Assembly: GCA_964639875.1 (NCBI GenBank)
Contig: CAZXEM010000001.1
Span: forward strand, 1 to 60,593
Direction: 5' to 3'
Length of the DNA stretch: 60,593 bases
DNA from: an uncultured Methanosarcinales archaeon
GTDB lineage: Archaea; Nanobdellota; Nanobdellia; Woesearchaeales; GW2011-AR9
Both the position numbers and the translations under genes were made by a program. Below the pieces are notes generated by a model that saw only the letters and a program-made list of their open reading frames with translations, did no database searches and was not told the DNA's origin. Below, piece by piece: positions 1 through 43,811 of the stretch (the first letter of the stretch is position 1; each line of letters starts with the position of its first letter).

Positions 1-437
1 ATGTACGGATCAGAATAATCTAAAGAAACACCCATCCGTTGAAAGTCAATAACCATTTGATCAGCCATTTCTAAACAAAAAGATGTACATTCTTTAATGA
101 ATTTTTTAAGACCAAATTTTTCAATATCTTCTTTTGTTTTTAAATTATGTTTGGCCATAACTTTATGGGCTGTAGGCAAACCATGAACGTCAAAACCTGC
201 CCGGTCCCAGACATTTAAGCCAAGAGAACGTTTATACCTTAAAGAAATATCTTTAAGAGATTTGTTCCATGCGGTTCCTAAATGAACCTTACCAGAAGTA
301 TACGGTGGACCGTCCAAATAATAATATTTCTTCCCGTTAATATTCTGTTTTCTAAGTTTTTCTAATATTTTCTGATTTTTCCAAAATTCTAATATTTCTG
401 GTTCAAGTTCTGAATGGTTATAAGTGTCACGTATCAT
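1..437 (-). CDS. ileS: Isoleucyl-tRNA synthetase, N-terminal fragment (gene continues beyond window start)
   Basis: Manual translation from ATG at 437: MIRDTYNHSELEPEILEFWKNQ...YYYLDGPPYTSGKVHLGTAWNKSLKD...DRAGFDVHGLPTAHKV. This is the class Ia HIGH-region architecture (PPY.sG..HlG... then GxDxHGLP) typical of IleRS. Not in the ORF track because it is truncated. Confidence 0.7.
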   Translation of the reverse strand, partial: MIRDTYNHSELEPEILEFWKNQKILEKLRKQNINGKKYYYLDGPPYTSGKVHLGTAWNKSLKDISLRYKRSLGLNVWDRAGFDVHGLPTAHKVMAKHNLKTKEDIEKFGLKKFIKECTSFCLEMADQMVIDFQRMGVSLDYSDPY

Positions 438-512
438 TATAAAAACGTTAGAGGGGAGTTATTTTTAAATGTTTTGGGGTTAATGACCTTATAAATATCT
501 TTTAAATATATT

Positions 513-1808
513 TTACTCATCAACATAAGTTTTTAAACGTTGATTTCTGAAAGGATTACGAAGTCTTTCTAAAGCTCCAGCTTCAATTTGTCTAATTCTT
601 TCTCTGGTAACTTTGAAATCTTTTCCAACTTCTTCTAAAGTATAATCTCTATCTTCACCAATCCCAAATCTCATTCTAAGAATTTTTTCTTCTCTTGGCG
701 TTAATGTTCTTAAAACCCTGGATACGGCCATTACTAATCCATCATCTAAAGAATACTTTTCTGCATCAGGACTTTTTTCATCAACAATAAAATCAACCAT
801 TGTAGTATCTTCTTCCTCGCCAACAGGCATATTTAAAGAAATAGTATCTTTAGATATTTTTTTAACTTTTTTATAAGTAGCGAGAATTTTTTTAGAGTCC
901 TTATTTTCTTTAGCTTTATCAGTAAGACCACCATACAAATGTTCAGCGATTTCTTTATCAGTTCCTTGACGATTAAATTTATGCAAAAAATCATAATCTG
1001 CTTTACTCCATTTGTTTAGAAATTCAATAGTGTGTACAGGTAATCGAATAGTTCTACTGGTATCAAATATTGATCTTGTAACGCATTGTCTAATCCACCA
1101 AGTGGCATAAGTTGAAAATTTATATCCTTTTTTGTAATCAAATTTGTCAACTGCTTTCATTAATCCAATATTTCCTTCTTGGACAAGATCTTTTATACTT
1201 AATCCACCAATTCTATACTTTTTAGCAATACTGACAACTAAACGAAGGTTTTTTTCAACAAACTCATTTCTTAATTTTAATTCTAAATCTAAGTAACCTT
1301 TCATCAAACCTAATTTCTCGGCAGTAACTCGAGTTTTAATTCGATAATTCTCACTTTCTTTAAGATCAATATCTTCATGTAACCTCAACTCTTCATTTAA
1401 GTTCAAGTGGTAAGAACCCCTATACAAAATGTCAAACATGTTATCATAAATTAACGTTGTTCTTTTCTTAGTTTTTCTTTTACCAAGCAGTTCTTCTAAA
1501 TCAGAAAGAGCAATTTCATATAATTCACTACTATGACCATTACTTCGAACTTTATCAATTACTCCTCTTTCAGTTTCAAACAATTCCTGAAATTTTGAAA
1601 CCAGTAAAGGGTAACCAAACATATTTTTTAAACGATGAGTTCTAGTATGTTGACAAATACCATAAAACAACTCTTTATAACAATCTTCCAATCTTATAGC
1701 TAGATTTATTTCATCATCTCTATCCATAAGTTTTTCTTCACCAATTTTACTTAAATAAAAACTAAAAGTTCGATCATCTTCAAGACCTCTAACTTTTTTT
1801 CCCACCAT
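513..1808 (-). CDS. Bacterial-type RNA polymerase sigma-70 (RpoD-family) homologue
   Basis: All conserved sigma-70 regions are readable. Region 1.2: FYLSKIG...EINLAIRLE. Region 2: [12 protein letters not shown]..., [35 protein letters not shown]. Region 3: RTIRLPVH. Region 4: [14 protein letters not shown]...[22 protein letters not shown] spacer of about 110 aa separates regions 1.2 and 2. Confidence 0.85.
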
Positions 1809-3221: not shown

Positions 3222-3470
3222 TTATTCAAGATCTAAATCTTCTAAATCATCAAAATTGACATCACTGCCAAACTCTTCATCAAGACTTTCCAATTCATCT
3301 AATCCTTCAAGACCTTCGTCAAGTTCAACCTCTTCTGGACTGGAAGTTTCCCCTTCAACTGATTCAAGTTCTGAAGCAGAGTCTTCAACCACCTCTGTTT
3401 TACAAGCAACAAGAAATAGTAAACTAATCAAAACTGTCAAAATAATCATTTTTTTTATCATCGTATTCAC
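3222..3470 (-). CDS. Small acidic secreted protein with lipobox-like signal peptide
   Basis: MIKKMIILTVLISLLFLVAC followed by an extremely D/E-rich mature region. Confidence 0.5.
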   Translation of the reverse strand: MNTMIKKMIILTVLISLLFLVACKTEVVEDSASELESVEGETSSPEEVELDEGLEGLDELESLDEEFGSDVNFDDLEDLDLE

Positions 3471-3541
3471 CTCAAAAAGAAAAAAAAAGAAAAAAGAGTT
3501 ATAAAGTTTACTAACTCCTTTTCAGTAGTCTTTAAACCTGT

Positions 3542-4621
3542 TTACTCAGTAGTTTCTCCCTCATTCTCTTCAGAATCTTCTACCACCTCAGATTCTTCAA
3601 CTTCTTCTACTTCCTCTGCATCCTCTACTTCATTTCCCAGTTCAATGCTCTTAAACTCTTTAACAAAATCACGTAATAATTCTTTTGTCTTTTTCAAATC
3701 TTCAAGAACAATTTTTTGCTTTTCTTTTGCAAATTCTAAACGCTCTTTACTAGCTCTAGAATTTTCCCAAGCAGCATCAGCTTCTTCTTTATCTACTTTA
3801 AGTTTGTCCACTACTTCTTTAAAATCTTCAGCAATAGCTCTAACTCTTTCTAAATCTTCAGCAGAAGCACCTTTCTCTTCCAGATTAGAGATCCTCATCT
3901 GCATAGCGTTATAAAATTCGTCATGCTTATCAACCAAATTACCCATCTTATTATTAATCAATTGAGTAATAATCCATCGCTGTTCTTTTCTGATTTCGTT
4001 CCATAGATCTTTCAGCTCTTTAATTTTACCACGAATTTCTGCAGCAGTAGCTTCGTCTGCCATGGATTCAATTTCATCTTTTTTAGCAGAAAGTTTTTCT
4101 TCTAAAGCTTTAACTTTAACTAAAGCTTCCTCTTTTTCTTCATCAGTCATAACATTAGAATTTTCTATCCGATCAAGAAGTTTTTCAACAGAGCGAGCAA
4201 TTAAATCACTAGTTTTAACTAAATGATTTTTTACACCAACTTTTAAGTTCTTTTTGAACTCTTTACAATCATCGCCTTCACACTTGTTAACTTTACCTTT
4301 AAGTTCATTAAGTCTTTCTCGATGCTTTTCTACAAACTGTTTAGCTTCTTTTTGTTTCTCTTTAAGTTTGTTATACCTTTCTCGATTATTTTTTATTTTT
4401 TCTTTTGTTTCCTGTAAAAACTGTTTTGATTTAGCTTTAATGTTTACAGGTTTCTTTGGTGGTACTTTCTTTTGTTTACCTTCAATTGGTTCTTCAAGAA
4501 CATCTTCAACTTCCATTCCAGTAACTTCAATATCTTCTTCTGCTAAAGCTGCTGGTAAAATACTTAACACAAAAATTGCCAGTACAGCCAAAGCAAACAT
4601 CTTTTTCATTATTTTCGTCAT
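3542..4621 (-). CDS. Secreted coiled-coil protein, K/E-rich, function unknown
   Basis: Signal peptide FALAVLAIFVLSILPAALAEE, a long heptad-like K/E-rich body and an acidic tail. A TATA-like ctttataaag sits upstream near 4670-4680. Confidence 0.5.
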   Translation of the reverse strand: MTKIMKKMFALAVLAIFVLSILPAALAEEDIEVTGMEVEDVLEEPIEGKQKKVPPKKPVNIKAKSKQFLQETKEKIKNNRERYNKLKEKQKEAKQFVEKHRERLNELKGKVNKCEGDDCKEFKKNLKVGVKNHLVKTSDLIARSVEKLLDRIENSNVMTDEEKEEALVKVKALEEKLSAKKDEIESMADEATAAEIRGKIKELKDLWNEIRKEQRWIITQLINNKMGNLVDKHDEFYNAMQMRISNLEEKGASAEDLERVRAIAEDFKEVVDKLKVDKEEADAAWENSRASKERLEFAKEKQKIVLEDLKKTKELLRDFVKEFKSIELGNEVEDAEEVEEVEESEVVEDSEENEGETTE

Positions 4622-21599: not shown

Positions 21600-21681
21600 A
21601 TTATAACACCTTTAGAATGCTTTATCACATCTATCATTTATTTAGTAGTGAAAAGATAAAGATTATATATAAATGTTTTGG

Positions 21682-21703
21682 AAAAAAAGTAAAAAGAAAA
21701 AAA
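21682..21703 (-). terminator. Oligo-T terminator at the end of the lipobox island
   Basis: Minus strand reads TTTTTTTCTTTTTACTTTTTTT immediately after the stop at 21704-21706. Confidence 0.4.
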
Positions 21704-21895
21704 TTATTCTAATCTATCTTTCATTACTTCATTTAAATCTCTTTGATACTTAGCATTTTGATCATCAACATCAATATGTGGTAATATGTTATGATAAAAA
21801 TGAGCTATGTCAACTTGTCCACATGGTTCAAATTGTAATTCCAATTCTAGTTTTTTAGTTTCAAGAACTGGTTTCTGGTATAATTTCATTGACAT
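21704..21895 (-). CDS. Island ORF I16: small cytoplasmic protein, no recognisable family
   Basis: 63-aa ORF starting 2 nt after the I15 stop. No signal peptide. Confidence 0.4.
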   Translation of the reverse strand: MSMKLYQKPVLETKKLELELQFEPCGQVDIAHFYHNILPHIDVDDQNAKYQRDLNEVMKDRLE

Positions 21896-21897
21896 CT

Positions 21898-22320
21898 TTA
21901 TTTAGCGGCTTGGTAATCTTCTTCAACAATATTATCTTTAGCATCATATTCTGTACGTTCCATTTTCCATCTGCCACCAAAAGGTTCGAAAACTCCATCA
22001 TTGAAACATCTTACATTGGTTCTAGAACCATCTTCATGAGTTTTAGTATAATGTTGCTCTTCAGCCATACCATCGCCATCATAATCCATCTTTACAAATT
22101 TTTCTGAACCCTTTTCTAATCTTAAATATGAGATTTCAATACCCCTTTCATCAACACGCTTTACAGCTTTTACTACAGTTCCATTTTCAATTGGATTTTT
22201 ACCACAGAATTGATTCACCTCATAATTAGTAGTAGTAGCACATCCACTTAAAGCAGTTAAAGCTGTAGCTCCAACTAGTAATTTTTTTCCAGTATTAACA
22301 ATATTTTCTAACATTTTCAT
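21898..22320 (-). CDS. Island ORF I15: lipobox protein with DxDGDG loop
   Basis: Signal/lipobox LLVGATALTALSGC. Mature region contains MDYDGDGMAEEQ. Confidence 0.55.
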   Translation of the reverse strand: MKMLENIVNTGKKLLVGATALTALSGCATTTNYEVNQFCGKNPIENGTVVKAVKRVDERGIEISYLRLEKGSEKFVKMDYDGDGMAEEQHYTKTHEDGSRTNVRCFNDGVFEPFGGRWKMERTEYDAKDNIVEEDYQAAK

Positions 22321-22332
22321 TTTATTTGTACC

Positions 22333-22647
22333 TCATTGATAATCAGTTATAGGTGGTAATTGTATTGTTTCTCTCTTTACTTCAGGGCTTCTTACTGAAA
22401 CTAACATAGCAATTCCTGGTGGTGATGGTGGGTCTTTTGGATCAAAATCATACGCACTTCTTGTTAAAAAAGTTGAGATTGGACTTGGTTCATTATCATC
22501 ATCTCTACCATATTGACCAAGATCAACCGGTTTAAATCTCTTAAAATCGCTATAATCAATTACAATATCTTCTAACGGAAAGCCACTTTTTGCAGGTGGC
22601 AATAATGGTTTGTCTTCACCAAGTCTATCATATTTTAAAAATTTCAT
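22333..22647 (-). CDS. Island ORF I14: Pro/Asp-rich small protein
   Basis: 104-aa ORF (KDPPSPPG, LPPITDYQ). No signal peptide. Confidence 0.4.
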   Translation of the reverse strand: MKFLKYDRLGEDKPLLPPAKSGFPLEDIVIDYSDFKRFKPVDLGQYGRDDDNEPSPISTFLTRSAYDFDPKDPPSPPGIAMLVSVRSPEVKRETIQLPPITDYQ

Positions 22648-22664
22648 TTTAATAAATACCCCTT

Positions 22665-23039
22665 CTATGCAGCCGCTCCACCTGGACCATGATAAAAATC
22701 ATGGTTATTTGGAAAAGTTTCAATATCTCTTGCTAATTTCTTATACTGTTCAACAATTCTTCCTAAAGCAAAACTAGGATTAACTTTATAATCCATTTCA
22801 GCTAAATGTGCCTTTAAACTTTCAATAGAATCTTTTGGATCTTCTCTTAAACCGTAATTAGTTATAATGCATTCAAAATCGGATCTAGAATCAAAACCTA
22901 ATCCACTTGTAACATTTCTTTCAATCTGTTCTTGGAATGGTGTTTGTTCTGTAATTGGATTAAAATTATAAAGACCATGCCCTATTTCTCCTCCAATTAT
23001 CATTCCTAATAATCCTAATGCAGTTTCTGGTTTTCCCAT
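22665..23039 (-). CDS. Island ORF I13: protein with N-terminal glycine-zipper-like segment
   Basis: ALGLLGMIIGGEIGHGLY (GxxxG-type spacing). C-terminus GPGGAAA. First gene after the internal TTTATAAA box. Confidence 0.45.
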   Translation of the reverse strand: MGKPETALGLLGMIIGGEIGHGLYNFNPITEQTPFQEQIERNVTSGLGFDSRSDFECIITNYGLREDPKDSIESLKAHLAEMDYKVNPSFALGRIVEQYKKLARDIETFPNNHDFYHGPGGAAA

Positions 23040-23090
23040 TTTAATATATACCTCATAATTAGTCTAATATTAACTTAGAAACAGTTTTTA

Positions 23091-23098
23091 TTTATAAA
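23091..23098 (-). promoter_or_regulatory. Internal TATA-box candidate in the only sizeable gap of the island
   Basis: TTTATAAA in the 88-nt I12-I13 gap, about 52 nt upstream of ATG 23039, with tgaggt SD-like sequence between. Confidence 0.35.
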
Positions 23099-23127
23099 TC
23101 TTTGGGTAATTTGTTACTTTTAAGTAG

Positions 23128-23640
23128 CTAAAATAAAGCTCCGCCACTAAACCCAAAACCAGCGTTAAAATCTCCACTTTCATGCAAATAGAAGTCTACT
23201 CCGGTTTGTAAATAAAATGGATACATTTCTAAACCCACTTTAACTGATGGAGTCCACATTATTTCACTTTCAGAATTGATGCCCATCCTAAAAGCACCAA
23301 TTAATAATTCTAAAGAATCTTTAGATTTAGGGTCATACTTTCCAAACCCGTTAGTTAAACCAAATTCATACAAATCAATCTCAGAACCAGTTGATAACAA
23401 ATTAAGTGAATATTCTCCAGAATAATTACTAATTCCTTTCTTACGAGTGTTAGAATCTTCTTTGTACAATTTAACCATTACTTTCCCACCTTGTTTCCAA
23501 TCTTCTGGCGTTTGTGATAAACTGTAACCAAAGCCTACTTTTTTATAAGCTACTTTCCGCTGCAAATGTTGGTTAATACTAGCACAAGAAGTACTCAGAA
23601 GTAAAGTGCTCAAACATAAAGGTAATATTTTTTTTAACAT
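23128..23640 (-). CDS. Island ORF I12: lipobox-like protein with beta-barrel-like (OMP-like) sequence pattern
   Basis: Signal LPLCLSTLLLSTSC. Alternating hydrophobic beta-strand pattern (KVGFGYSLS, GEYSLNLLS, IDLYEFGLTNGFG, VKVGLEMYPFYLQTGVDFYL). C-terminus NAGFGFSGGALF ends in Phe. Confidence 0.5.
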   Translation of the reverse strand: MLKKILPLCLSTLLLSTSCASINQHLQRKVAYKKVGFGYSLSQTPEDWKQGGKVMVKLYKEDSNTRKKGISNYSGEYSLNLLSTGSEIDLYEFGLTNGFGKYDPKSKDSLELLIGAFRMGINSESEIMWTPSVKVGLEMYPFYLQTGVDFYLHESGDFNAGFGFSGGALF

Positions 23641-23641
23641 T

Positions 23642-23938
23642 TTAACAATACTCTTCTAACAAATCTAACATATTTTGTGCTTTCTTTTTTGCTTCCAGTT
23701 TCATTTTAATTGATGCTAAAGGTCTACTCCCGCTTGTACGAGTGCCAGAAATTTTAACTGTCTCATTTACTTCTTGGTTTAAGAAATTAACAACATCTTT
23801 CATTGTTAGATCATCATTCTTTTCTTCAACAAGCCTATATTTTGAAACGTAATCTAAATAATCTTTAGCAAATATTTTACAATCATCTCCAACAAGTTCA
23901 TAACCCGGAATTTTGTTAACTATATCTATATATTTCAT
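23642..23938 (-). CDS. Island ORF I11: cytoplasmic partner protein, paralogue of I2
   Basis: Start overlaps the I10 stop by 4 nt (ATGA). Aligns with I2 in NKIPGYELVGDDCKIFAKDYLDYV and the C-terminal KKKAQNMLDLL. Confidence 0.5.
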   Translation of the reverse strand: MKYIDIVNKIPGYELVGDDCKIFAKDYLDYVSKYRLVEEKNDDLTMKDVVNFLNQEVNETVKISGTRTSGSRPLASIKMKLEAKKKAQNMLDLLEEYC

Positions 23939-24318
23939 TTTATTTTATCCTCAATTGTTCGATGATAATGTTTTCTTGCTTCGCTAGGAGAAACCCATCC
24001 ATCATGGTTAAAATCAGCTTGACGACATGTTTCTTGATAACTTTTTGTGTTAACTGCTGCACCATCACCTTCAATAACAACATAACCGTCTGCTATTTTT
24101 CTGGTACGAACAGTACCATTTTTCATTCCCGCAGTAGTTTGTAATAAAAAACGAGTTTTTTCATTTCTCATTCGGATAACTTGTTCTTGAATTTGATAAG
24201 CACGGTAATCAAAATTTTGTGGTTTAGAAACATGCTGATTAGAAGAACAACCAGTAGCTAGAACTAAATAAGTTAAACCTAATAGTACTGGTTTCAAAAA
24301 GTAATTTTTTATTTCCAT
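23935..24318 (-). CDS. Island ORF I10: lipobox protein with canonical EF-hand-type loop
   Basis: Signal LLGLTYLVLATGC. DFNHDGWVSPSE fits the 12-residue EF-hand loop pattern D-x-[DNS]-x-[DNS]-G-x-[ILV]-x-x-x-E. Confidence 0.55.
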   Translation of the reverse strand: MEIKNYFLKPVLLGLTYLVLATGCSSNQHVSKPQNFDYRAYQIQEQVIRMRNEKTRFLLQTTAGMKNGTVRTRKIADGYVVIEGDGAAVNTKSYQETCRQADFNHDGWVSPSEARKHYHRTIEDKIK

Positions 24319-24539
24319 GAGTCTTTCTTCTCTTCAAACTGACTATCTAAATCTTTATGATCTTCTTTTGCGTGAGACCTTACGCTTTCAGTTTGATACA
24401 TTTTTCTTTGTTCTTCTTGTTGCTTTTGCATCACTTCGTACTGAGTTGGAACACAACCAGACAAGGATACAGCTACTGCTGCACCCATTATTGCTTTTGC
24501 TACATATCCAACTGTTTTTTTCATTGTTTCATATTTCAT
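24309..24539 (-). CDS. Island ORF I9: small lipobox protein
   Basis: Signal AIMGAAVAVSLSGC followed by a charged Q/E/K-rich mature peptide. Overlaps the I10 start by 10 nt. Confidence 0.5.
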   Translation of the reverse strand: MKYETMKKTVGYVAKAIMGAAVAVSLSGCVPTQYEVMQKQQEEQRKMYQTESVRSHAKEDHKDLDSQFEEKKDSWK

Positions 24540-24551
24540 TTTATTTTTCCT

Positions 24552-25115
24552 CTAAATTTTTTGAAATTTTTTTTCACTATATTTCAATTCTTTATCATAA
24601 TCTGATCCTGTTTTTATCATTGCTTTGAAGTGTTTACTAACATTTGAAACATCAATATTAAATCTTAAGGTATAACCAATATCTAAATCAGTTTCAAAAC
24701 TTTCAACATTTTCATTATAAACTGCAAGCATGGTTTTGTATGATTGGCCATGGCATTTTGCAGCTGAGACACAACTCTCAGCAAATAAACCAACTGTCCT
24801 TTGATTTAAAGTACTAAATACTTTTCTTGCTGCAACCACATTTTCATTATAGTTATGAACCCTAAAAAAATGATTATTAGACTTAGAATCAGATAATATC
24901 TTAGTTAAATTTTTAACATCTTCTTCAATAATACTTGGAATTGACATAGCAATAAAAAGGTCTTTGCTAGGCAGGTGATTTTTACCATCAATCACAGATT
25001 CAGATTTAATTAAAAGGTAAGTTGCTTCCATTCTTTGCAAAGCATAGTAAGATAATACTAATGCATTCTTCATTGCATTTTCTTGTGAGGTTAATGTTAA
25101 TCTTTCTAATGTCAT
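24552..25115 (-). CDS. Island ORF I8: cytoplasmic protein, no recognisable family
   Basis: The track start at 25136 is TTG. ATG at 25115 has AGGAGGG (25121-25127) upstream, and using it removes the overlap with I7. Confidence 0.5.
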   Translation of the reverse strand: MTLERLTLTSQENAMKNALVLSYYALQRMEATYLLIKSESVIDGKNHLPSKDLFIAMSIPSIIEEDVKNLTKILSDSKSNNHFFRVHNYNENVVAARKVFSTLNQRTVGLFAESCVSAAKCHGQSYKTMLAVYNENVESFETDLDIGYTLRFNIDVSNVSKHFKAMIKTGSDYDKELKYSEKKFQKI

Positions 25116-25129
25116 TTTTTCCCTCCTAA

Positions 25130-25465
25130 TTACCAACGTATTCTGATTCTATTTTTGTGTCCGTGCCCATGTTTATGACCATGTTTATGTCCATGATGAG
25201 ACCCATGCTTATGTCCATTATATTTATGCCCATGATGATAACCTCCATGGCTATGAGAACCATTGTGCGGATGACAATGATTTTTATAACCATGTCCATG
25301 ACAATTCTTTTTATTCTGATTTACTTGGTAATGTACTGGGGGTGTTCTAAAAGCAAAGCCCACTCCGTATGGTTCAATACAACCAGTAGTACCAACAGCA
25401 ATCACTCCCGCTAATAATAATTCTAATCCTAATCTAGATTTTTTCTTTTCTTCTTTCATTTCCAT
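25130..25465 (-). CDS. Island ORF I7: lipobox protein with extreme His-rich tail, paralogue of I5
   Basis: Start chosen at ATG 25465 (AGGAGG at 25475-25480). Signal LLLAGVIAVGTTGC, then NQNKKNCHGHGYKNHCHPHNGSHSHGGYHHGHKYNGHKHGSHHGHKHGHKHGHGHKNRIRIRW. Confidence 0.55.
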   Translation of the reverse strand: MEMKEEKKKSRLGLELLLAGVIAVGTTGCIEPYGVGFAFRTPPVHYQVNQNKKNCHGHGYKNHCHPHNGSHSHGGYHHGHKYNGHKHGSHHGHKHGHKHGHGHKNRIRIRW

Positions 25466-25488
25466 TTTTATTTTCCTCCTCATGATTC

Positions 25489-25839
25489 TTAATCTGCTCT
25501 AAGTTTTTTCTCTATTCCTTGAGCCAGTTTTATAATCTCAGTTGCTATTGCTCCCATCTCTAAAGGCATGGGTTCAATTTTTAAGATCTGGGCTCCAGGA
25601 CATTTATATAAATCGACACCTTCAGCTAGATAACCTTTATGGGCAATTTTACTCAAGTCTCCTGGAATTCTAACCAAGTCTGCAATTCCATCTCCATTAC
25701 AATCTAACACACCCCATGGTTGATAACCACTAGGGGATATGTTCAGACTGTACGGTTGATTTCCTTTTGGTTCTTGCGGTTTACAGGCAGTTATACCTAA
25801 AGCTAAAGCCGCACTCAATAATAATATTTTATAATCCAT
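25489..25839 (-). CDS. Island ORF I6: lipobox protein with DxNGDG loop
   Basis: Start moved to ATG 25839 (MDYKILLLSAALALGITAC), with GGAG upstream. The longer track ORF would overlap I5. Contains LDCNGDGIADLV. Confidence 0.55.
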   Translation of the reverse strand: MDYKILLLSAALALGITACKPQEPKGNQPYSLNISPSGYQPWGVLDCNGDGIADLVRIPGDLSKIAHKGYLAEGVDLYKCPGAQILKIEPMPLEMGAIATEIIKLAQGIEKKLRAD

Positions 25840-25855
25840 TTTTATTAGTCTCCAT

Positions 25856-26083
25856 TTACCAACTTCTTCTTTGACGATAATTGTTACAAGTATCATGATG
25901 AGTATGCCAACCATCATGGGGGTGACATTGTTTCTCATTACAATGATAATGACATTCTTTCTTTTGATTGTAACGGAAACCCATTCCACCAAAAGAAGCG
26001 GAAAGATTTCCTCCGCAACCGGCCATTAAAGCAGGGATAGCAATTATCAAAGATACTTTTTTGATTTTTTCAGTTAATGACAT
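25856..26083 (-). CDS. Island ORF I5: Cys/His-rich lipobox mini-protein, paralogue of I7
   Basis: Signal LIIAIPALMAGC, then NQKKECHYHCNEKQCHPHDGWHTHHDTCNNYRQRRSW. Shares the motif NQ-KK-x-CH-x-H...CHPH-[ND]-G-x-H-[ST]-H with I7. Confidence 0.55.
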   Translation of the reverse strand: MSLTEKIKKVSLIIAIPALMAGCGGNLSASFGGMGFRYNQKKECHYHCNEKQCHPHDGWHTHHDTCNNYRQRRSW

Positions 26084-26089
26084 TTTATC

Positions 26090-26524
26090 TTATTCCATGA
26101 AATTACTAGCTTTCCAATAATGTCTAATCAATTCTGCAGTTGCAGTCTGGTCTAAACTTTTTCCTGAAGCTACTGGACCGTCTCCAGAAACTAGGTTTCT
26201 TTCACGCATACATTTTCTAGCAACTCTTACTGATTCTCCCATTACTGCTACTTCATCAATACTTTTGAAAGGAGATTGTTCTGCAGCTTTTCCTTGTAAA
26301 TAGAAACAAGCATGTGATTCACTTATTTTTCCATTCTTGCCGTATAATGAAATTGCTTCTTGAGCCATCTCTTGCCAAGGTTGCATTTCGTTTCTTTCAA
26401 CAGAATGATTATAAGAATCATTTCCGCTCATTGTTTTTTCCAAACCTGCAGTTACACATGCAGTTCCAGTTAGTGTTATTGTAGCTGATGCCAAAATTGG
26501 CATTATCATTTTTTCATATTTCAT
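26090..26524 (-). CDS. Island ORF I4: lipobox-like secreted protein
   Basis: Signal MPILASATITLTGTAC. Helical-looking mature domain with no recognisable family. Confidence 0.5.
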   Translation of the reverse strand: MKYEKMIMPILASATITLTGTACVTAGLEKTMSGNDSYNHSVERNEMQPWQEMAQEAISLYGKNGKISESHACFYLQGKAAEQSPFKSIDEVAVMGESVRVARKCMRERNLVSGDGPVASGKSLDQTATAELIRHYWKASNFME

Positions 26525-26537
26525 TTTATTTTCACCT

Positions 26538-26927
26538 TTATTCTTGTTTTAGATTTTCATTAAATCTTTTCATAATCCCGTATTGTGGATAAACTAATGA
26601 TTCTATTTTAGCAGAAAACAATTTTGTTTCATCTTTACTTAAGAAATGAACTTTATCACCAGAAATGTAATCCTTATCATTTTTATTTAAAACTGCAACT
26701 ACTTGTTTTTCAAGTTGATGGTTTTTAATGTAAGATCCCATTTGTGAAGATAAGCTAAATAAAGGTGATTCTTGTCTTAATCTTGCGAATTTACCTATTT
26801 CACTTTCTCCATCAACCTCACTAAATATCCCATAGGCATAATTTTCTGGACTTGAGTTTGGATGCTTAGCTAAGAATGAATAATCACCTTCAACATTTTC
26901 AACTTTCAATATTTTTAATAGTGTCAT
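26538..26927 (-). CDS. Island ORF I3: cytoplasmic protein, no recognisable family
   Basis: 129-aa ORF starting 3 nt after the I2 stop. No signal peptide. Confidence 0.45.
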   Translation of the reverse strand: MTLLKILKVENVEGDYSFLAKHPNSSPENYAYGIFSEVDGESEIGKFARLRQESPLFSLSSQMGSYIKNHQLEKQVVAVLNKNDKDYISGDKVHFLSKDETKLFSAKIESLVYPQYGIMKRFNENLKQE

Positions 26928-26930
26928 TTT

Positions 26931-27266
26931 CTATATCCCTCTTAATATTCTTAACAAACCTTGTGCTTTACTTTTTGATTCTGTTCTTGAAGCATAAGCT
27001 ACTTGAGAATCAATAAAGTTCCATCCTCTTGGATGAATTTCCATGTTTACAGTTTCTTCTAATTTTTCAACAACTGTACTAATGTCTAAGTTTTTTAGGT
27101 ATTCACTAGACCGTTCATCAATACACATTATATCTGCTTTATTTCCTAAGTCTCTTCTCATTAATTTGTCAACAACGTGATCAAAGTAAAATGATGCTGG
27201 GATTCTTTTATGAGGTCCTACATTTGCATCTTCAGGAATTTGTTTCTTTATTTTTGAATAACTCAT
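26931..27266 (-). CDS. Island ORF I2: cytoplasmic partner protein, paralogue of I11
   Basis: Start overlaps the I1 stop by 4 nt (ATGA). KQIPEDANVGPHKRIPASFYFDHV and SKSKAQGLLRIL align with I11. Confidence 0.5.
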   Translation of the reverse strand: MSYSKIKKQIPEDANVGPHKRIPASFYFDHVVDKLMRRDLGNKADIMCIDERSSEYLKNLDISTVVEKLEETVNMEIHPRGWNFIDSQVAYASRTESKSKAQGLLRILRGI

Positions 27267-27547
27267 CTTTTCAAATATACCTCTGCACAGATTTGATCGC
27301 CTTGTCTCTTGTATCTTGTCATTGTATTCTCTAATGTTACTTCTCCGCCTTTGCCTTCAGTTAAATAATCAGCAATCATTGTTTTAGCTTCATATTCAGT
27401 CATATCTCTTTTAGTAGAAACATCGCCAACACTAGAACAAGCTCTAGCAAGAACTCCGCCATTTAATTCTCTAATTTCTGGTTTCAATGTAGTTGCACAG
27501 CCCCCAAGTACTAAAGCTGCAATTCCAGTTAAAATCATTTTTTTCAT
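27263..27547 (-). CDS. Island ORF I1: small lipobox protein (first gene of the island)
   Basis: Signal MKKMILTGIAALVLGGC. GAGGG SD about 10 nt upstream. Confidence 0.55.
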   Translation of the reverse strand: MKKMILTGIAALVLGGCATTLKPEIRELNGGVLARACSSVGDVSTKRDMTEYEAKTMIADYLTEGKGGEVTLENTMTRYKRQGDQICAEVYLKR

Positions 27548-27589
27548 TTTTAATTTCCCTCTTTGTTATAGCTTAGTAGTAACAATGGT

Positions 27590-27597
27590 TATTTAAC
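27590..27597 (-). promoter_or_regulatory. TATA-box candidate for the island operon
   Basis: Minus strand agTTAAATAAcc about 46 nt upstream of ATG 27547, with a GAGGG SD in the predicted short leader. Confidence 0.3.
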
Positions 27598-27643
27598 TAT
27601 CTTTTTACTATCTTCCATATCTTAGATATTAAAAACAGAAAAG

Positions 27644-27653
27644 TTTAAATAAA
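27644..27653 (+). promoter_or_regulatory. TATA-box candidate for the AbrB-PhoU regulator (leaderless geometry)
   Basis: tttaaataaa centred about 26 nt upstream of ATG 27674, back-to-back with the island promoter. Confidence 0.45.
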
Positions 27654-27673
27654 AACAAAACTAAAATCAAAAT

Positions 27674-28537
27674 ATGAACAGAAAATTAATCAAACAGGGT
27701 GGAACTGGACTTACATTATACGTTCCCAAGAAGTGGGTGGATCGATTAAAACTTAAACCAGGAGATGAAGTTTCAGTAGAAGAAGATGGAAACAAACTTA
27801 TTCTTAGTCCAGAGACTGTACTTAAAGAGAAAAAAATTAAACTTGATGCCACCAAACTTGATGAAAACTCTTTAAGAATTGCTTTATCTTTACTTTATTG
27901 GCAAGGTTACAATAAAATAGAAATAACAAACAAAGATAAATTTTCTTTTCTAGGTATTAACAAAGTAGTTGATAATTTTATTGGGATGGTAATTACAGAT
28001 CAATCTGATCATAAAGTAACCATTGAAAATACTATCAAAGAAAATGTTAAAAATGTGGATAAAATTATTAACAAATTATTCATTACTGTGAAATACATGT
28101 TTTCCTATTTGTTAAATAACTTTTCTAAAAATTTAGAGAATGATTTAGAAATTTTAGAACTTAGAAATTCAATCTTAAAACAAGGTAATTATTGTCAAAA
28201 ATTGATTTTTGTTAATAATTTTGGTAAAGAAAAAACTTATGAATATGTGGTCGTAGTTCTAATGTTAAAAAAGATTTCAGGTTCGTTATTTTTCTTATCA
28301 AAAAATAAACTACATTTAAAAAAGACAGAAGCATACTTAAAAAGATCTTTTGACTGGTTTGAAAATTTACACAATAGTTATCTTAAGAAAGATCCTACTA
28401 CTTCTTTAGAAATTTATGAATTATTAAACAAAGAAAAGATTAAACTCTACAAGGAGCAAAATGAGAACGTTATTTTTGGAGGAATGATTGAACATATGTT
28501 TAGTTTATCGCTAAGAGTTAGCAGCATTAATCTTTAG
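27674..28537 (+). CDS. AbrB/SpoVT-domain plus PhoU-like transcriptional regulator
   Basis: N-terminus KLIKQGGTGLTLYVPKKWVDRLKLKPGDEVSVEEDGNKLILSP is a SpoVT/AbrB swapped-hairpin motif. The helical C-terminal domain fits the archaeal AbrB-PhoU architecture. Confidence 0.65.
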   Translation: MNRKLIKQGGTGLTLYVPKKWVDRLKLKPGDEVSVEEDGNKLILSPETVLKEKKIKLDATKLDENSLRIALSLLYWQGYNKIEITNKDKFSFLGINKVVDNFIGMVITDQSDHKVTIENTIKENVKNVDKIINKLFITVKYMFSYLLNNFSKNLENDLEILELRNSILKQGNYCQKLIFVNNFGKEKTYEYVVVVLMLKKISGSLFFLSKNKLHLKKTEAYLKRSFDWFENLHNSYLKKDPTTSLEIYELLNKEKIKLYKEQNENVIFGGMIEHMFSLSLRVSSINL

Positions 28538-28549
28538 TTTAAAAAAAAG

Positions 28550-28755
28550 AGCCCCGGGCGAGACTTTCAGAATGATTCCGCTTGATTCGCAGTGCGTTGG
28601 GTTTTATACCCAACCCGCTCTTGCGTATCAAATGAGCGTAACCATTTGGTTGAACTCGCGACCTCCTGATATCTTGATGTGCTTTGGATTAATTTTGTAA
28701 ACACATCCGATAGAGATTTACAAGTCAGGTGCTATAGCCACTAAGCCACCGGGGC
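28550..28755 (-). tRNA. tRNA-Thr(UGU) with a 48-nt anticodon-loop intron (about 28671-28718) and an 85-nt T-loop insertion (about 28564-28648)
   Basis: Minus strand reads: acceptor GCCCCGG/CCGGGGC; D-arm GCTT-AGTGGCTA-TAGC; anticodon stem CCTGA/TCAGG with loop CTTGTA[intron]A; T-stem GCGAG/CTCGC enclosing 92 nt; discriminator U. A T8 run (28541-28549) follows. Confidence 0.8.
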
Positions 28756-28855
28756 AATACATGCTTGGTAACTTAAGGGGACTAAGAGAGCAACGCGAAC
28801 GCATGTCGCCTGTCTTATCAAATGGGACTCCATTTGCCATCTAAGCTACCGGGGC
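28756..28855 (-). other. tRNA-Thr-like 5-prime fragment (acceptor strand plus D-arm-like sequence) forming the promoter-proximal part of the tRNA-Thr locus
   Basis: TATTGCCCCGGTAGCTTAG at 28841-28859 repeats 28741-28759 with one mismatch (period 100 nt). Next comes the hairpin CAAATGG-AGTCC-CATTTGATA, related to the first hairpin of the T-loop insertion. No anticodon or T arm was found. Confidence 0.4.
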
Positions 28856-28878
28856 AATATCAAGGATTTTATTTACTC

Positions 28879-28888
28879 TATTTATTAA
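28879..28888 (-). promoter_or_regulatory. TATA-box candidate positioned for the tRNA-Thr fragment
   Basis: Minus strand TTAATAAATA centred about 28 nt upstream of 28855. No TATA lies upstream of the full tRNA at 28755. Confidence 0.4.
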
Positions 28889-28925
28889 CTTTTTGGAAAA
28901 AACAAGCTTAAGAAAAACCAAAACC

Positions 28926-43722: not shown

Positions 43723-43811
43723 GGCCCCGTGGCTTAGCCTGGTAGAGCGCACGACTGATATGCTCAAGCTAAGAAATCGTGAGGTCCGGGGTTCAAATCC
43801 CCGCGGGGCCA
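43723..43811 (+). tRNA. tRNA-Ile(GAU) with a 15-nt canonical anticodon-loop intron (about 43761-43775)
   Basis: Acceptor GGCCCCG/CGGGGCC; D-arm GCTT/GAGC; anticodon stem CACGA/TCGTG with loop CTGATA[intron]A; T-arm CGGGG-TTCAAAT-CCCCG; discriminator A. Confidence 0.9.

Follow-up and report, generated by a model that had tools for sequence, protein, structure and literature searches.

We describe an island of sixteen small genes (I1 to I16) in a 60,593-nucleotide (nt) stretch of archaeal DNA (contig CAZXEM010000001.1 of assembly GCA_964639875.1; hereafter the window), located between a divergently transcribed AbrB/SpoVT-domain regulator and the psmB-aCPSF1 gene pair. With moderate confidence, we interpret this locus from its sequence as a regulated, accessory, fast-evolving and lineage-restricted envelope lipoprotein island in two adjacent units. 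Proteins with a predicted lipobox are strongly concentrated in it (9/16 in the block versus 1/~70 open reading frames (ORFs) elsewhere in the window; Fisher p = 2.3e-7), and by dN/dS, the ratio of nonsynonymous to synonymous substitution rates, its genes evolve 3-15 times faster than their neighbours. Additionally, relatives with the same anchors hold different gene sets, which upholds the accessory status proposed in a preliminary description of this DNA.

A block of sixteen genes

The sixteen-gene block is real. Sixteen minus-strand ORFs of 63-187 amino acids (aa) had been reported head to tail at 21704-27547, and they are present at these coordinates. The reported spacing of -10 to +23 nt holds when I6 begins at MDYK (25842), a start that puts I6 13 nt after I5 and is backed by the start of the orthologue in the related locus L083; the gene caller's longer version of I6 has a 62-nt overlap with I5. 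The exception to this spacing is an 88-nt gap at 23040-23127, in which TTTATAAA was located at 23091-23098. The Shine-Dalgarno sites given as examples (AGGAGG at 25475-25480, 9 nt upstream of the I7 start, and AGGAGGG at 25121-25127) and the oligo-T tract at 21682-21703 were likewise found in place, and GAGG/GGAGG-type sites occur within ~15 nt 5' of most start codons in the block. The features of the locus, in the order in which the minus strand is read from the regulator, are as follows.

27674..28537, plus strand: AbrB/SpoVT-domain regulator, 287 aa, divergent from I1
27548..27673, no strand: divergent intergenic region between the regulator and I1
27591-27629, minus strand: candidate operator block ATATCTAAGATATGGAAGATAGTAAAAAGATAGTTAAAT, 39 nt
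27263..27547, minus strand: I1, 94-aa lipobox protein (LGGC, Cys17) with two further conserved Cys
26931..27266, minus strand: I2, 111 aa, without signal peptide, weak I11 paralogue
26538..26927, minus strand: I3, 129 aa, without signal peptide, most widely retained cargo gene
26090..26524, minus strand: I4, 144-aa lipobox protein (GTAC, Cys23)
25856..26083, minus strand: I5, 75-aa Cys/His-rich lipobox protein (MAGC)
25489..25842, minus strand: I6, 117-aa lipobox protein (ITAC) with a DCNGDGIAD loop, start MDYK
25130..25465, minus strand: I7, 111-aa lipobox protein (TTGC), 19% His, (HGHK)n tail
24552..25115, minus strand: I8, 187 aa, without signal peptide, near-orphan
24309..24539, minus strand: I9, 76-aa lipobox protein (LSGC)
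23935..24318, minus strand: I10, 127-aa lipobox protein (ATGC) with an EF-hand-like loop DFNHDGWVSPSE
23642..23938, minus strand: I11, 98 aa, without signal peptide, always directly 5' of I12
23128..23640, minus strand: I12, 170-aa lipobox protein (STSC), beta-rich, C-terminal GFGFSGGALF
23040..23127, minus strand: predicted internal promoter cassette P2, TTTATAAAT, boundary between the two units
22665..23039, minus strand: I13, 124-aa acidic protein, without signal peptide, codon score 0.38, best of six frames
22333..22647, minus strand: I14, 104-aa Pro-rich protein, no homologue found
21898..22320, minus strand: I15, 140-aa lipobox protein (LSGC), mature part predicted to be seven-strand all-beta
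21704..21895, minus strand: I16, 63 aa, very fast-evolving, with homologues of 46-49% identity in L003 and L005
21682..21703, minus strand: oligo-T tract TTTTTTTCTTTTTACTTTTTTT, predicted archaeal-type terminator, followed by the psmB TATA box

That many of these ORFs are chance frames in AT-rich DNA rather than genes is a reading to which we give almost no credence. The absence of homologues for I13 and I14 and a dN/dS near 1 for I16 are what it can draw on. However, under the codon usage of the window itself (a model trained on 24 of its long genes), the annotated frame was the best of six for 16/16 ORFs, with scores of 0.01-0.38 bits per codon compared to 0.37 for long housekeeping genes and ~-0.8 off-frame. 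Thirteen of the sixteen products have non-identical, diverged homologues on other contigs (those of I9 are weak), dN/dS lies below 1 wherever measurable, I16 excepted, and the genes have ribosome-binding sites and tight spacing. The GC content of the block equals that of its flanks. An identical island recurs across many assemblies (53 indexed blocks contain I12, and another 22 places are similar), and thus we take it to be stably present in an abundant population rather than created by assembly.

Small lipobox proteins outside known families

Signal peptides were judged by PROSITE rule PS51257 and a hydrophobicity heuristic. The rule specifies a Lys or Arg within the first 7 residues, 6 uncharged positions before the box, and a box of the form [LIVMFWSTAG](2)-[LIVMFYSTAGCQ]-[AGS]-C with its Cys at positions 15-35. 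The nine products for which lipoboxes had been claimed (I1, I4, I5, I6, I7, I9, I10, I12 and I15) all pass, as do 0/7 of the others (I2, I3, I8, I11, I13, I14 and I16). The parts that follow the lipobox Cys are unusually small, at 47-151 residues. As nine products conform to the rule and the Cys is invariant among divergent homologues of I1, I12 and I15, the designation as lipoproteins is borne out at the level of sequence. Class III (pilin-type) signals were rejected by inspection, since the hydrophobic stretch precedes the lipobox Cys and no short [KR]G/A cleavage site stands before it. The sole lipobox ORF outside the island (3222-3461, minus strand, 79 aa, LVAC) has an acidic, Ser/Glu-rich mature part.

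The products had also been called unrecognisable, and every library tried gave the same answer: no family match for any of them, and among the sixteen no confident profile match to a housekeeping family. Pfam, PHROGs and NCBIfam returned sub-threshold matches only, to lipoprotein signal peptides (LPAM_1, Cor, spanins). PADLOC, which was run on the ten products other than I1, I5, I6, I7, I9 and I15, gave only a chance-level AbrP2 fragment in I16 (E = 0.011), and profile searches of the PDB with the I1, I3 and I12 alignments found nothing significant.

A conserved regulator and two predicted transcription units

The regulator had been described as an AbrB-PhoU protein, and half of this description stands. 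Its N-terminal AbrB domain is supported by Pfam MazE_antitoxin PF04014 (E = 9.8e-9, above cut-off) and TIGR01439 (E = 1.2e-5). PhoU (PF01895), by contrast, was not detected in the regulator or two orthologues at E <= 1 in Pfam and E <= 0.01 in NCBIfam, and a PDB profile search with the regulator retrieved designed helical bundles and MazE only, with no PhoU structure; the C-terminal ~230 aa are helical and have no family assigned. Orthologues of the regulator at 89, 81, 49, 41, 30 and 29% identity all face secreted or lipoprotein gene clusters.

The candidate operator in the shared intergenic region contains an ATATCT/AGATAT palindrome, direct AGATAG repeats about one helical turn apart and an 11-nt tandem repeat (27592-27614), and a TATA-like A/T-rich element lies near 27636-27652. 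L083 and L095 carry this block unchanged and L096/L097 carry it with 2 mismatches; it can still be recognised in L098, L099 and L101, whose regulators share 49-29% identity with that of the window. The motif TTGTTACTACYAAG upstream of I1 showed no enrichment in the window (4 matches versus 1.7 expected). Given its conservation and position, we suggest that the AGATA-box block probably acts as an operator, and that the AbrB-domain protein probably controls the genes I1-I12 through this array.

A single operon had been proposed for all sixteen genes. This proposal is contradicted by P2, a conserved TATA-bearing internal cassette that recurs before different genes. P2 consists of the TATA box at 23091-23098, a short leader and a GAGG ribosome-binding site, and ~85 nt of it are conserved in the window and eight other loci (L083-86, L091, L092, L095 and L005). 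It is kept whatever its neighbours: I12 or an I9-like gene upstream, and I13, I15, a 167-aa gene or a 68-aa gene downstream; in L005 it precedes the I15 gene set. Because the cassette is conserved in front of different genes, we divide the block into two units, Unit A (I1-I12), which is linked to the regulator, and Unit B (I13-I16), which is driven by the predicted promoter P2. A terminator-like oligo-T tract was found after I16 only, so Unit B alone ends in one.

Fixed anchors and shifting cargo among relatives

A psmB-aCPSF1 query retrieved 80 loci titled Woesearchaeota, Nanoarchaeota or Nanoarchaeia, with psmB identities of 56-98%; some of these are mislabelled Methanosarcinales in the source records. 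Judged from sequence, the window genome is that of a Woesearchaeota (DPANN) archaeon. psmB and aCPSF1 are adjacent in nearly all 80 loci where the contig reaches far enough. In only 4/80 does I15 lie upstream of psmB, joined by I16 in 2 of them, and a close relative of the regulator was found within 10 kb of psmB-aCPSF1 in 0/80. A metagenome scan with the I12 alignment gave no matches, and a scan with the regulator was productive. Comparing synteny upstream of psmB and beside the regulator, we found that island content differs between relatives, as these arrangements illustrate (R, regulator, with its identity to that of the window).

Window, regulator 100%: R, I1-I12, P2, I13, I14, I15, I16, psmB
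L095 and L083, regulator 88.5%: R, I1 85%, I2 57%, I3 63%, I6 79%, 61-aa gene, I5/7-like His-rich lipoprotein, I9-like, P2, I15 (69% in L095, 76% in L083), two others, psmB 82%; an island of 10 genes
L084-86, short contigs on which the regulator is not covered: 167-aa gene between P2 and I15
L096 and L097, regulator 81%: R, I2, I3, 268-aa protein with a twin-arginine translocation (Tat) signal, I10-like lipoprotein
L098, regulator 49%: R, I4-like, I1 66%, I3 48%, 150-aa gene, I9-like, I12-like 38%, another lipoprotein
L101, regulator 30%: R, I1-like lipoprotein 36%, then larger secreted proteins, one matching DUF1615

Where the surrounding sequence suffices, homologues of the 13 families occur in clusters that are linked to the regulator or placed upstream of psmB. 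I2 has stayed next to I3, and I11 next to I12, in several relatives, and I15 occurs upstream of psmB, without the regulator, in the more distant relatives L003, L005, L009, L010 and L087-90. Island genes have dN/dS values of 0.14-0.65 (I16 ~1.0), compared to 0.03-0.065 for the regulator, psmB and aCPSF1. Within one genome pair, synonymous divergence (dS) is uneven, at 0.28-0.29 for I1 and I6 versus 0.97 for the regulator, which hints at recombination between lineages.

Between L003 and the window, psmB is 98% identical, I15 72% and I16 46%, and thus divergence jumps sharply at the psmB promoter. L003, a GTDB representative, covers 630 nt (1-630) upstream of psmB, and its contig end truncates the I15 homologue; this psmB-upstream region is one where assemblies are prone to break. 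Elsewhere, the L096/L097 cluster is followed by a NurA-domain protein (L096 6890-7822; E = 3e-6) and a 1034-aa protein; the window has a HerA-like DUF87 ATPase past ScpA, on the far side of the regulator.

This pattern of turnover could also be produced by a conflict or immunity array. Its exported members would be toxins that act on the envelope or, with greater likelihood, immunity lipoproteins that had been acquired, and the cytoplasmic proteins would be their partners; the nearest parallel would be bacterial arrays of periplasmic immunity genes that vary between strains. The high turnover of genes among closely related lineages, raised dN/dS and the interleaving of exported and non-exported small genes fit such an array, and conflict systems are reportedly over-represented in the dark-matter islands of archaea (PMC6393860). 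However, no island version encodes a toxin, nuclease, peptidase, Rhs or secretion-system domain, the ten products scanned with PADLOC gave no matches, and a dedicated regulator, a conserved candidate operator and an I1-I3 core are kept across 49%-identity divergence. As regulator, candidate operator and core are retained, a physiological regulon fits better than an acquired array, and we judge the latter unlikely.

An integrated mobile element or provirus remnant beside a tRNA gene is very improbable in our assessment, although the locus is a block of small orphan ORFs with variable content and the regulator is closely followed by an unannotated tRNA-Thr gene. Genes for an integrase, a capsid, a terminase or replication are missing, the I1, I3 and I12 families have no relatives in IMG/VR, the 3' end of tRNA-Thr is not repeated, GC content and codon usage are native, and the same anchors flank the island in diverged lineages. 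Lacking viral relatives (for these three families), an integrase, an attachment (att) repeat and a compositional anomaly, the locus was rejected as a provirus or mobile element.

The products of Unit A

I1 homologues always adjoin the regulator and share 85% (L083/L095), 66% (L098) and 36% (L101) identity with invariant C17, C37 and C87 (dN/dS 0.29). I2 has homologues of 57-58% in L083, L095 and L096 (dN/dS 0.65), and those of I3 reach 63-66% in the same three loci and 48% in L098, with 49 invariant columns (dN/dS 0.37). The homologue of I4 in L098 is 32-33% identical. The orthologue of I6 in L083/L095 shares 79% identity and starts with MNYK (dN/dS 0.38). Two paralogies had been claimed within the block: that of I5 and I7 is supported (E = 3e-5, KKxCHxH motif), and that of I2 and I11 is weak yet extends end to end (25%, E = 0.011). 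I5, I7 and a 96-aa protein of L083/L084 form one family in which the tails are rich in His and the motif KK[NE]CH[YG]H is shared. A 12-nt tandem repeat (4.3 copies, 25167-25218) encodes the (HGHK)n tail of I7 and may vary in length between strains.

Of 1.84 billion representatives, just one further 50%-identity cluster matches I8 (P0015, 35%, E = 2e-15), and this homologue, on L094, adjoins an I12-like gene and Tat-signal proteins homologous to those of L096 and L099. Weak homologues of I9 occur in L098 and, through L098, in L083. The ribosome-binding site and first codons of I9 (24518-24547) are 93% identical over 30 nt to those of I4 (26503-26532), and also to I11 (23930-23959). The start regions of I4, I9 and I11 are thus near-identical, all encoding MKY(E), while their mature proteins are unrelated, a pattern that points to 5' ends having recombined or been duplicated inside the island. 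For I10, an EF-hand was defined as a 12-residue DxNxDGxxxxxE loop between helices together with a Pfam match above threshold; I10 carries a canonical-looking loop of this kind, itself has no Pfam match, and has a 34% homologue in L096/L097. The I11-I12 pair is kept, followed by P2, on L091-93, where I11 identity is 49-81%.

I12 has homologues at 74-78% (P0010-12), 38% (L098) and 27-31% (the C-terminal domain of a 286-aa protein of L094), among which Cys19 is invariant (dN/dS 0.14-0.17). Its sequence can be read as eight alternating strands whose inward faces are rich in Gly, and its last residue is Phe. Beta-amphipathic windows cover 58% of the mature chain, a modest excess over the 33 +/- 12% of shuffles (11/500 shuffles reach it). 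The preliminary description had called this protein OMP-like (outer-membrane-protein-like), a claim that the profile comparisons did not confirm. Neither I12 nor its homologues gave a Pfam barrel match, the PDB profile search yielded no barrel, and hhalign against Phenol_MetA_deg, OmpX and OmpA stayed below 1% probability, with the OmpX and OmpA comparisons to be taken as leads only. I12 was therefore rejected as an OMP homologue at the sequence level. An AlphaFold2 model built from four sequences was unusable (predicted local distance difference test (pLDDT) score 29.5).

These features of I12 raise the question of an envelope machine, with I12 as a membrane beta-barrel or a lipid- or partner-facing pore and the other lipoproteins as accessories, possibly acting on a partner membrane. 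The I12 family does have about eight strands of alternating hydrophobic and small residues with a terminal aromatic (beta-amphipathic fraction 0.58 versus 0.33). On L094, an I12-like domain is transmembrane (TM)-anchored behind a cytoplasmic domain, its paralogue has Phenol_MetA_deg (E = 2.2e-11), and I8-like and I12-like genes are adjacent. Set against this are the missing Pfam barrel match for I12 or its homologues, the hhalign values of <1%, and the unusable AlphaFold model; moreover, Woesearchaeota are not known to have an outer membrane. The sister lineage L095 entirely lacks I12, and thus I12 is not a core part. We consider such a machine improbable. A more specific version, in which the I12 family would be lipid- or TM-anchored DPANN membrane beta-barrels and the island a variable toolkit of a surface pore or contact apparatus for the partner membrane, appears decidedly improbable; if the barrel reading of I12 were true, outer-membrane-type barrels with a working role in an archaeon would be highly interesting.

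L094 is a contig of 34% GC that has I8, I12 and Tat-protein families in common with Woesearchaeota loci; it would place a bacterial-type membrane-barrel family in what is likely a DPANN context. Its two paralogues (3336-4427, minus strand, and 65-925, plus strand) each consist of a ~110-aa N-terminal domain and then a TM segment; the C-terminal part of one is a Phenol_MetA_deg outer-membrane-barrel domain (above cut-off), and that of the other is the I12-like domain.

The products of Unit B

I15 is represented by nine 90%-identity clusters at 60-76% identity (dN/dS 0.24-0.26). Its AlphaFold2 model has a pLDDT of 77.8 overall and ~90 in the mature part, and Foldseek searches of this model against the PDB and BFVD gave no match at E <= 0.001. 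The lipobox junction GCATT is common to I15 and I1.

A model for the island

We favour a regulated lipoprotein island that would work as follows. Unit A would be transcribed divergently from the AbrB-domain regulator, probably under its control through the conserved AGATA boxes, and Unit B would extend from the portable promoter cassette to the predicted oligo-T terminator before psmB. Nine products would be exported by the Sec pathway. Following the lipobox rule and the described archaeal pathway (PMC12462473), their lipobox Cys would then be lipid-modified by an AliA/AliB-type system, and the lipidated products would be held on the outer face of the cytoplasmic membrane. Judging from composition alone, the Cys/His-rich I5 and I7 probably bind divalent metals. 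The exported set would also include I6 and I10, with their Ca-loop-like motifs, and the beta-rich I12 and I15, and the seven products without signal peptides would stay inside the cell. Calcium binding and a role in partner contact are possible, as are the host-interface, metal-handling, chaperone-like and immunity-like roles put forward in the preliminary description, for which the Cys/His-rich tails and the sub-threshold EF-hand signals are what can be cited. Cargo would be gained, lost and shuffled between lineages, with regulator, operator and promoter cassette remaining fixed. The rapid turnover suggests functions under external pressures that change, for example contact with partners, the supply of cations, or enemies.

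Several observations weigh against this model. No structure or family ties any product to metal, calcium or partner binding, and the EF-hand Pfam matches of the L096 homologue of I10 (E = 0.002-0.006) do not reach the gathering cut-offs. For I13 and I14, a scan of ~100 related loci gave no homologues. The dN/dS of I16 is ~1.0 in comparison with L003, a locus with a 98% identical psmB. Finally, in L098 the signal of the I4 homologue is of the ordinary Sec type and has no lipobox, and thus lipid anchoring is not obligatory in every family.

tRNA-like elements near the island

The unannotated tRNA-Thr(UGU) occupies 28549-28755 on the minus strand, inside a GC-rich stretch (28540-28870), and is interrupted twice, by ~48 nt following the anticodon loop and by ~100 nt within the T-loop. 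Neither ARAGORN nor Rfam detects it, and ARAGORN calls tRNA-Thr(tgt) after both insertions are cut out by hand. The region has 41-51% GC versus a background of 31% and a minus-strand folding z of -4.5, and its exons are conserved in L095. Directly upstream (~28756-28856, minus strand), GCCCCGGTAGCTTAGATGG... again resembles the 5' part of a tRNA, and the vicinity holds no 3' acceptor strand that matches it; this fragment may be a degenerated copy, may belong to a further tRNA with large interruptions, or may serve as a shared or alternative 5' half. The sole ARAGORN tRNA call in the window (43723-43811, 89 nt) is a tRNA-His 'atg', which is not a His anticodon, and is probably an intron-containing tRNA that was mis-parsed.

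A pair of minus-strand elements that read TTTTTTCCAAAA(N)..TTATA and are 83% alike over 24 nt occurs at 21664-21687 and 28879-28902. They stand before psmB and before the tRNA-Thr region, bracketing the island and its regulator, and look like a shared strong promoter consensus (B recognition element (BRE)/TATA) rather than att sites. A comparable TTTCCAAAAC element is repeated 5' of psmB in L095.

Relation to known systems and implications

Lipobox proteins are prevalent in DPANN archaea, and AliA and AliB are lipidation factors (PMC12462473). The nine island proteins share the basic n-region, h-region and [LVI..][ASTG][GAS]C box of archaeal lipobox lipoproteins as modelled in Haloferax volcanii (PMC12462473), but unlike the described examples their mature domains match no described family, are small and are encoded in a cluster. 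The locus also resembles the archaeal dark-matter islands of Makarova, Wolf and Koonin (PMC6393860), since here too short genes without annotation follow one another uninterrupted in a DPANN genome; 93 aa is the reported median length of dark-matter proteins, and DPANN are said to hold particularly many of these genes (PMC6393860). With sixteen consecutive genes that have no family assignment, it qualifies as such an island. What sets it apart is that it has no mobile-element or defence signature and is tied to a conserved regulator, a candidate operator and a promoter cassette, and its content can be traced across lineages.

Like AbrB/SpoVT transition-state regulators, the island regulator has an N-terminal swapped-hairpin AbrB/MazE domain and is divergent from a putative target operon; in contrast to archaeal AbrB-PhoU fusions, no PhoU was detected in it, and its putative targets are not phosphate-transport genes. 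I12 shares alternating strands, Gly-rich inward faces and a C-terminal Phe with the eight-stranded barrels of OmpX and the OmpA N-domain (clan MBB), but it has a lipobox, shows no sequence or profile relation to them and belongs to an archaeal host. Small-genome, host-dependent bacteria also have fast-turnover lipoprotein gene clusters, among them the Vsp/Vlp-type loci of Mycoplasma and the lipoprotein paralogue families of Borrelia. As in those loci, lipoprotein genes of the island cluster and turn over fast, and some island genes have near-identical 5' ends (I4/I9/I11, and I1/I15 at GCATT). However, the island has no large paralogous family, invertible promoter or recombinase, its only phase-variable-type repeat is the (HGHK)n of I7, and seven of its genes lack signal peptides.

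As lipobox proteins of DPANN (PMC12462473) and dark-matter islands (PMC6393860) have both been described, the kind of locus is already known, and the block taken alone represents well-documented archaeal genomic dark matter rather than a new mechanism. What is new are the undescribed protein families, a cargo pool that shuffles beside a conserved regulator, candidate operator and cassette across wide divergence, and the predicted two-unit layout. The families of I1, I3, I5/7, I12, I15 and others could enter annotation resources.

DPANN archaea rely on other cells, and the surface molecules behind this dependence are little known. The locus offers a testable handle, in which a conserved AbrB-type regulator and a candidate operator stand beside rapidly changing small proteins that are predicted to be lipid-anchored, several of them likely metal binders. 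The signal to which the regulator responds and the functions of the cargo, if found, would show what these archaea tune on their surface, and how fast.

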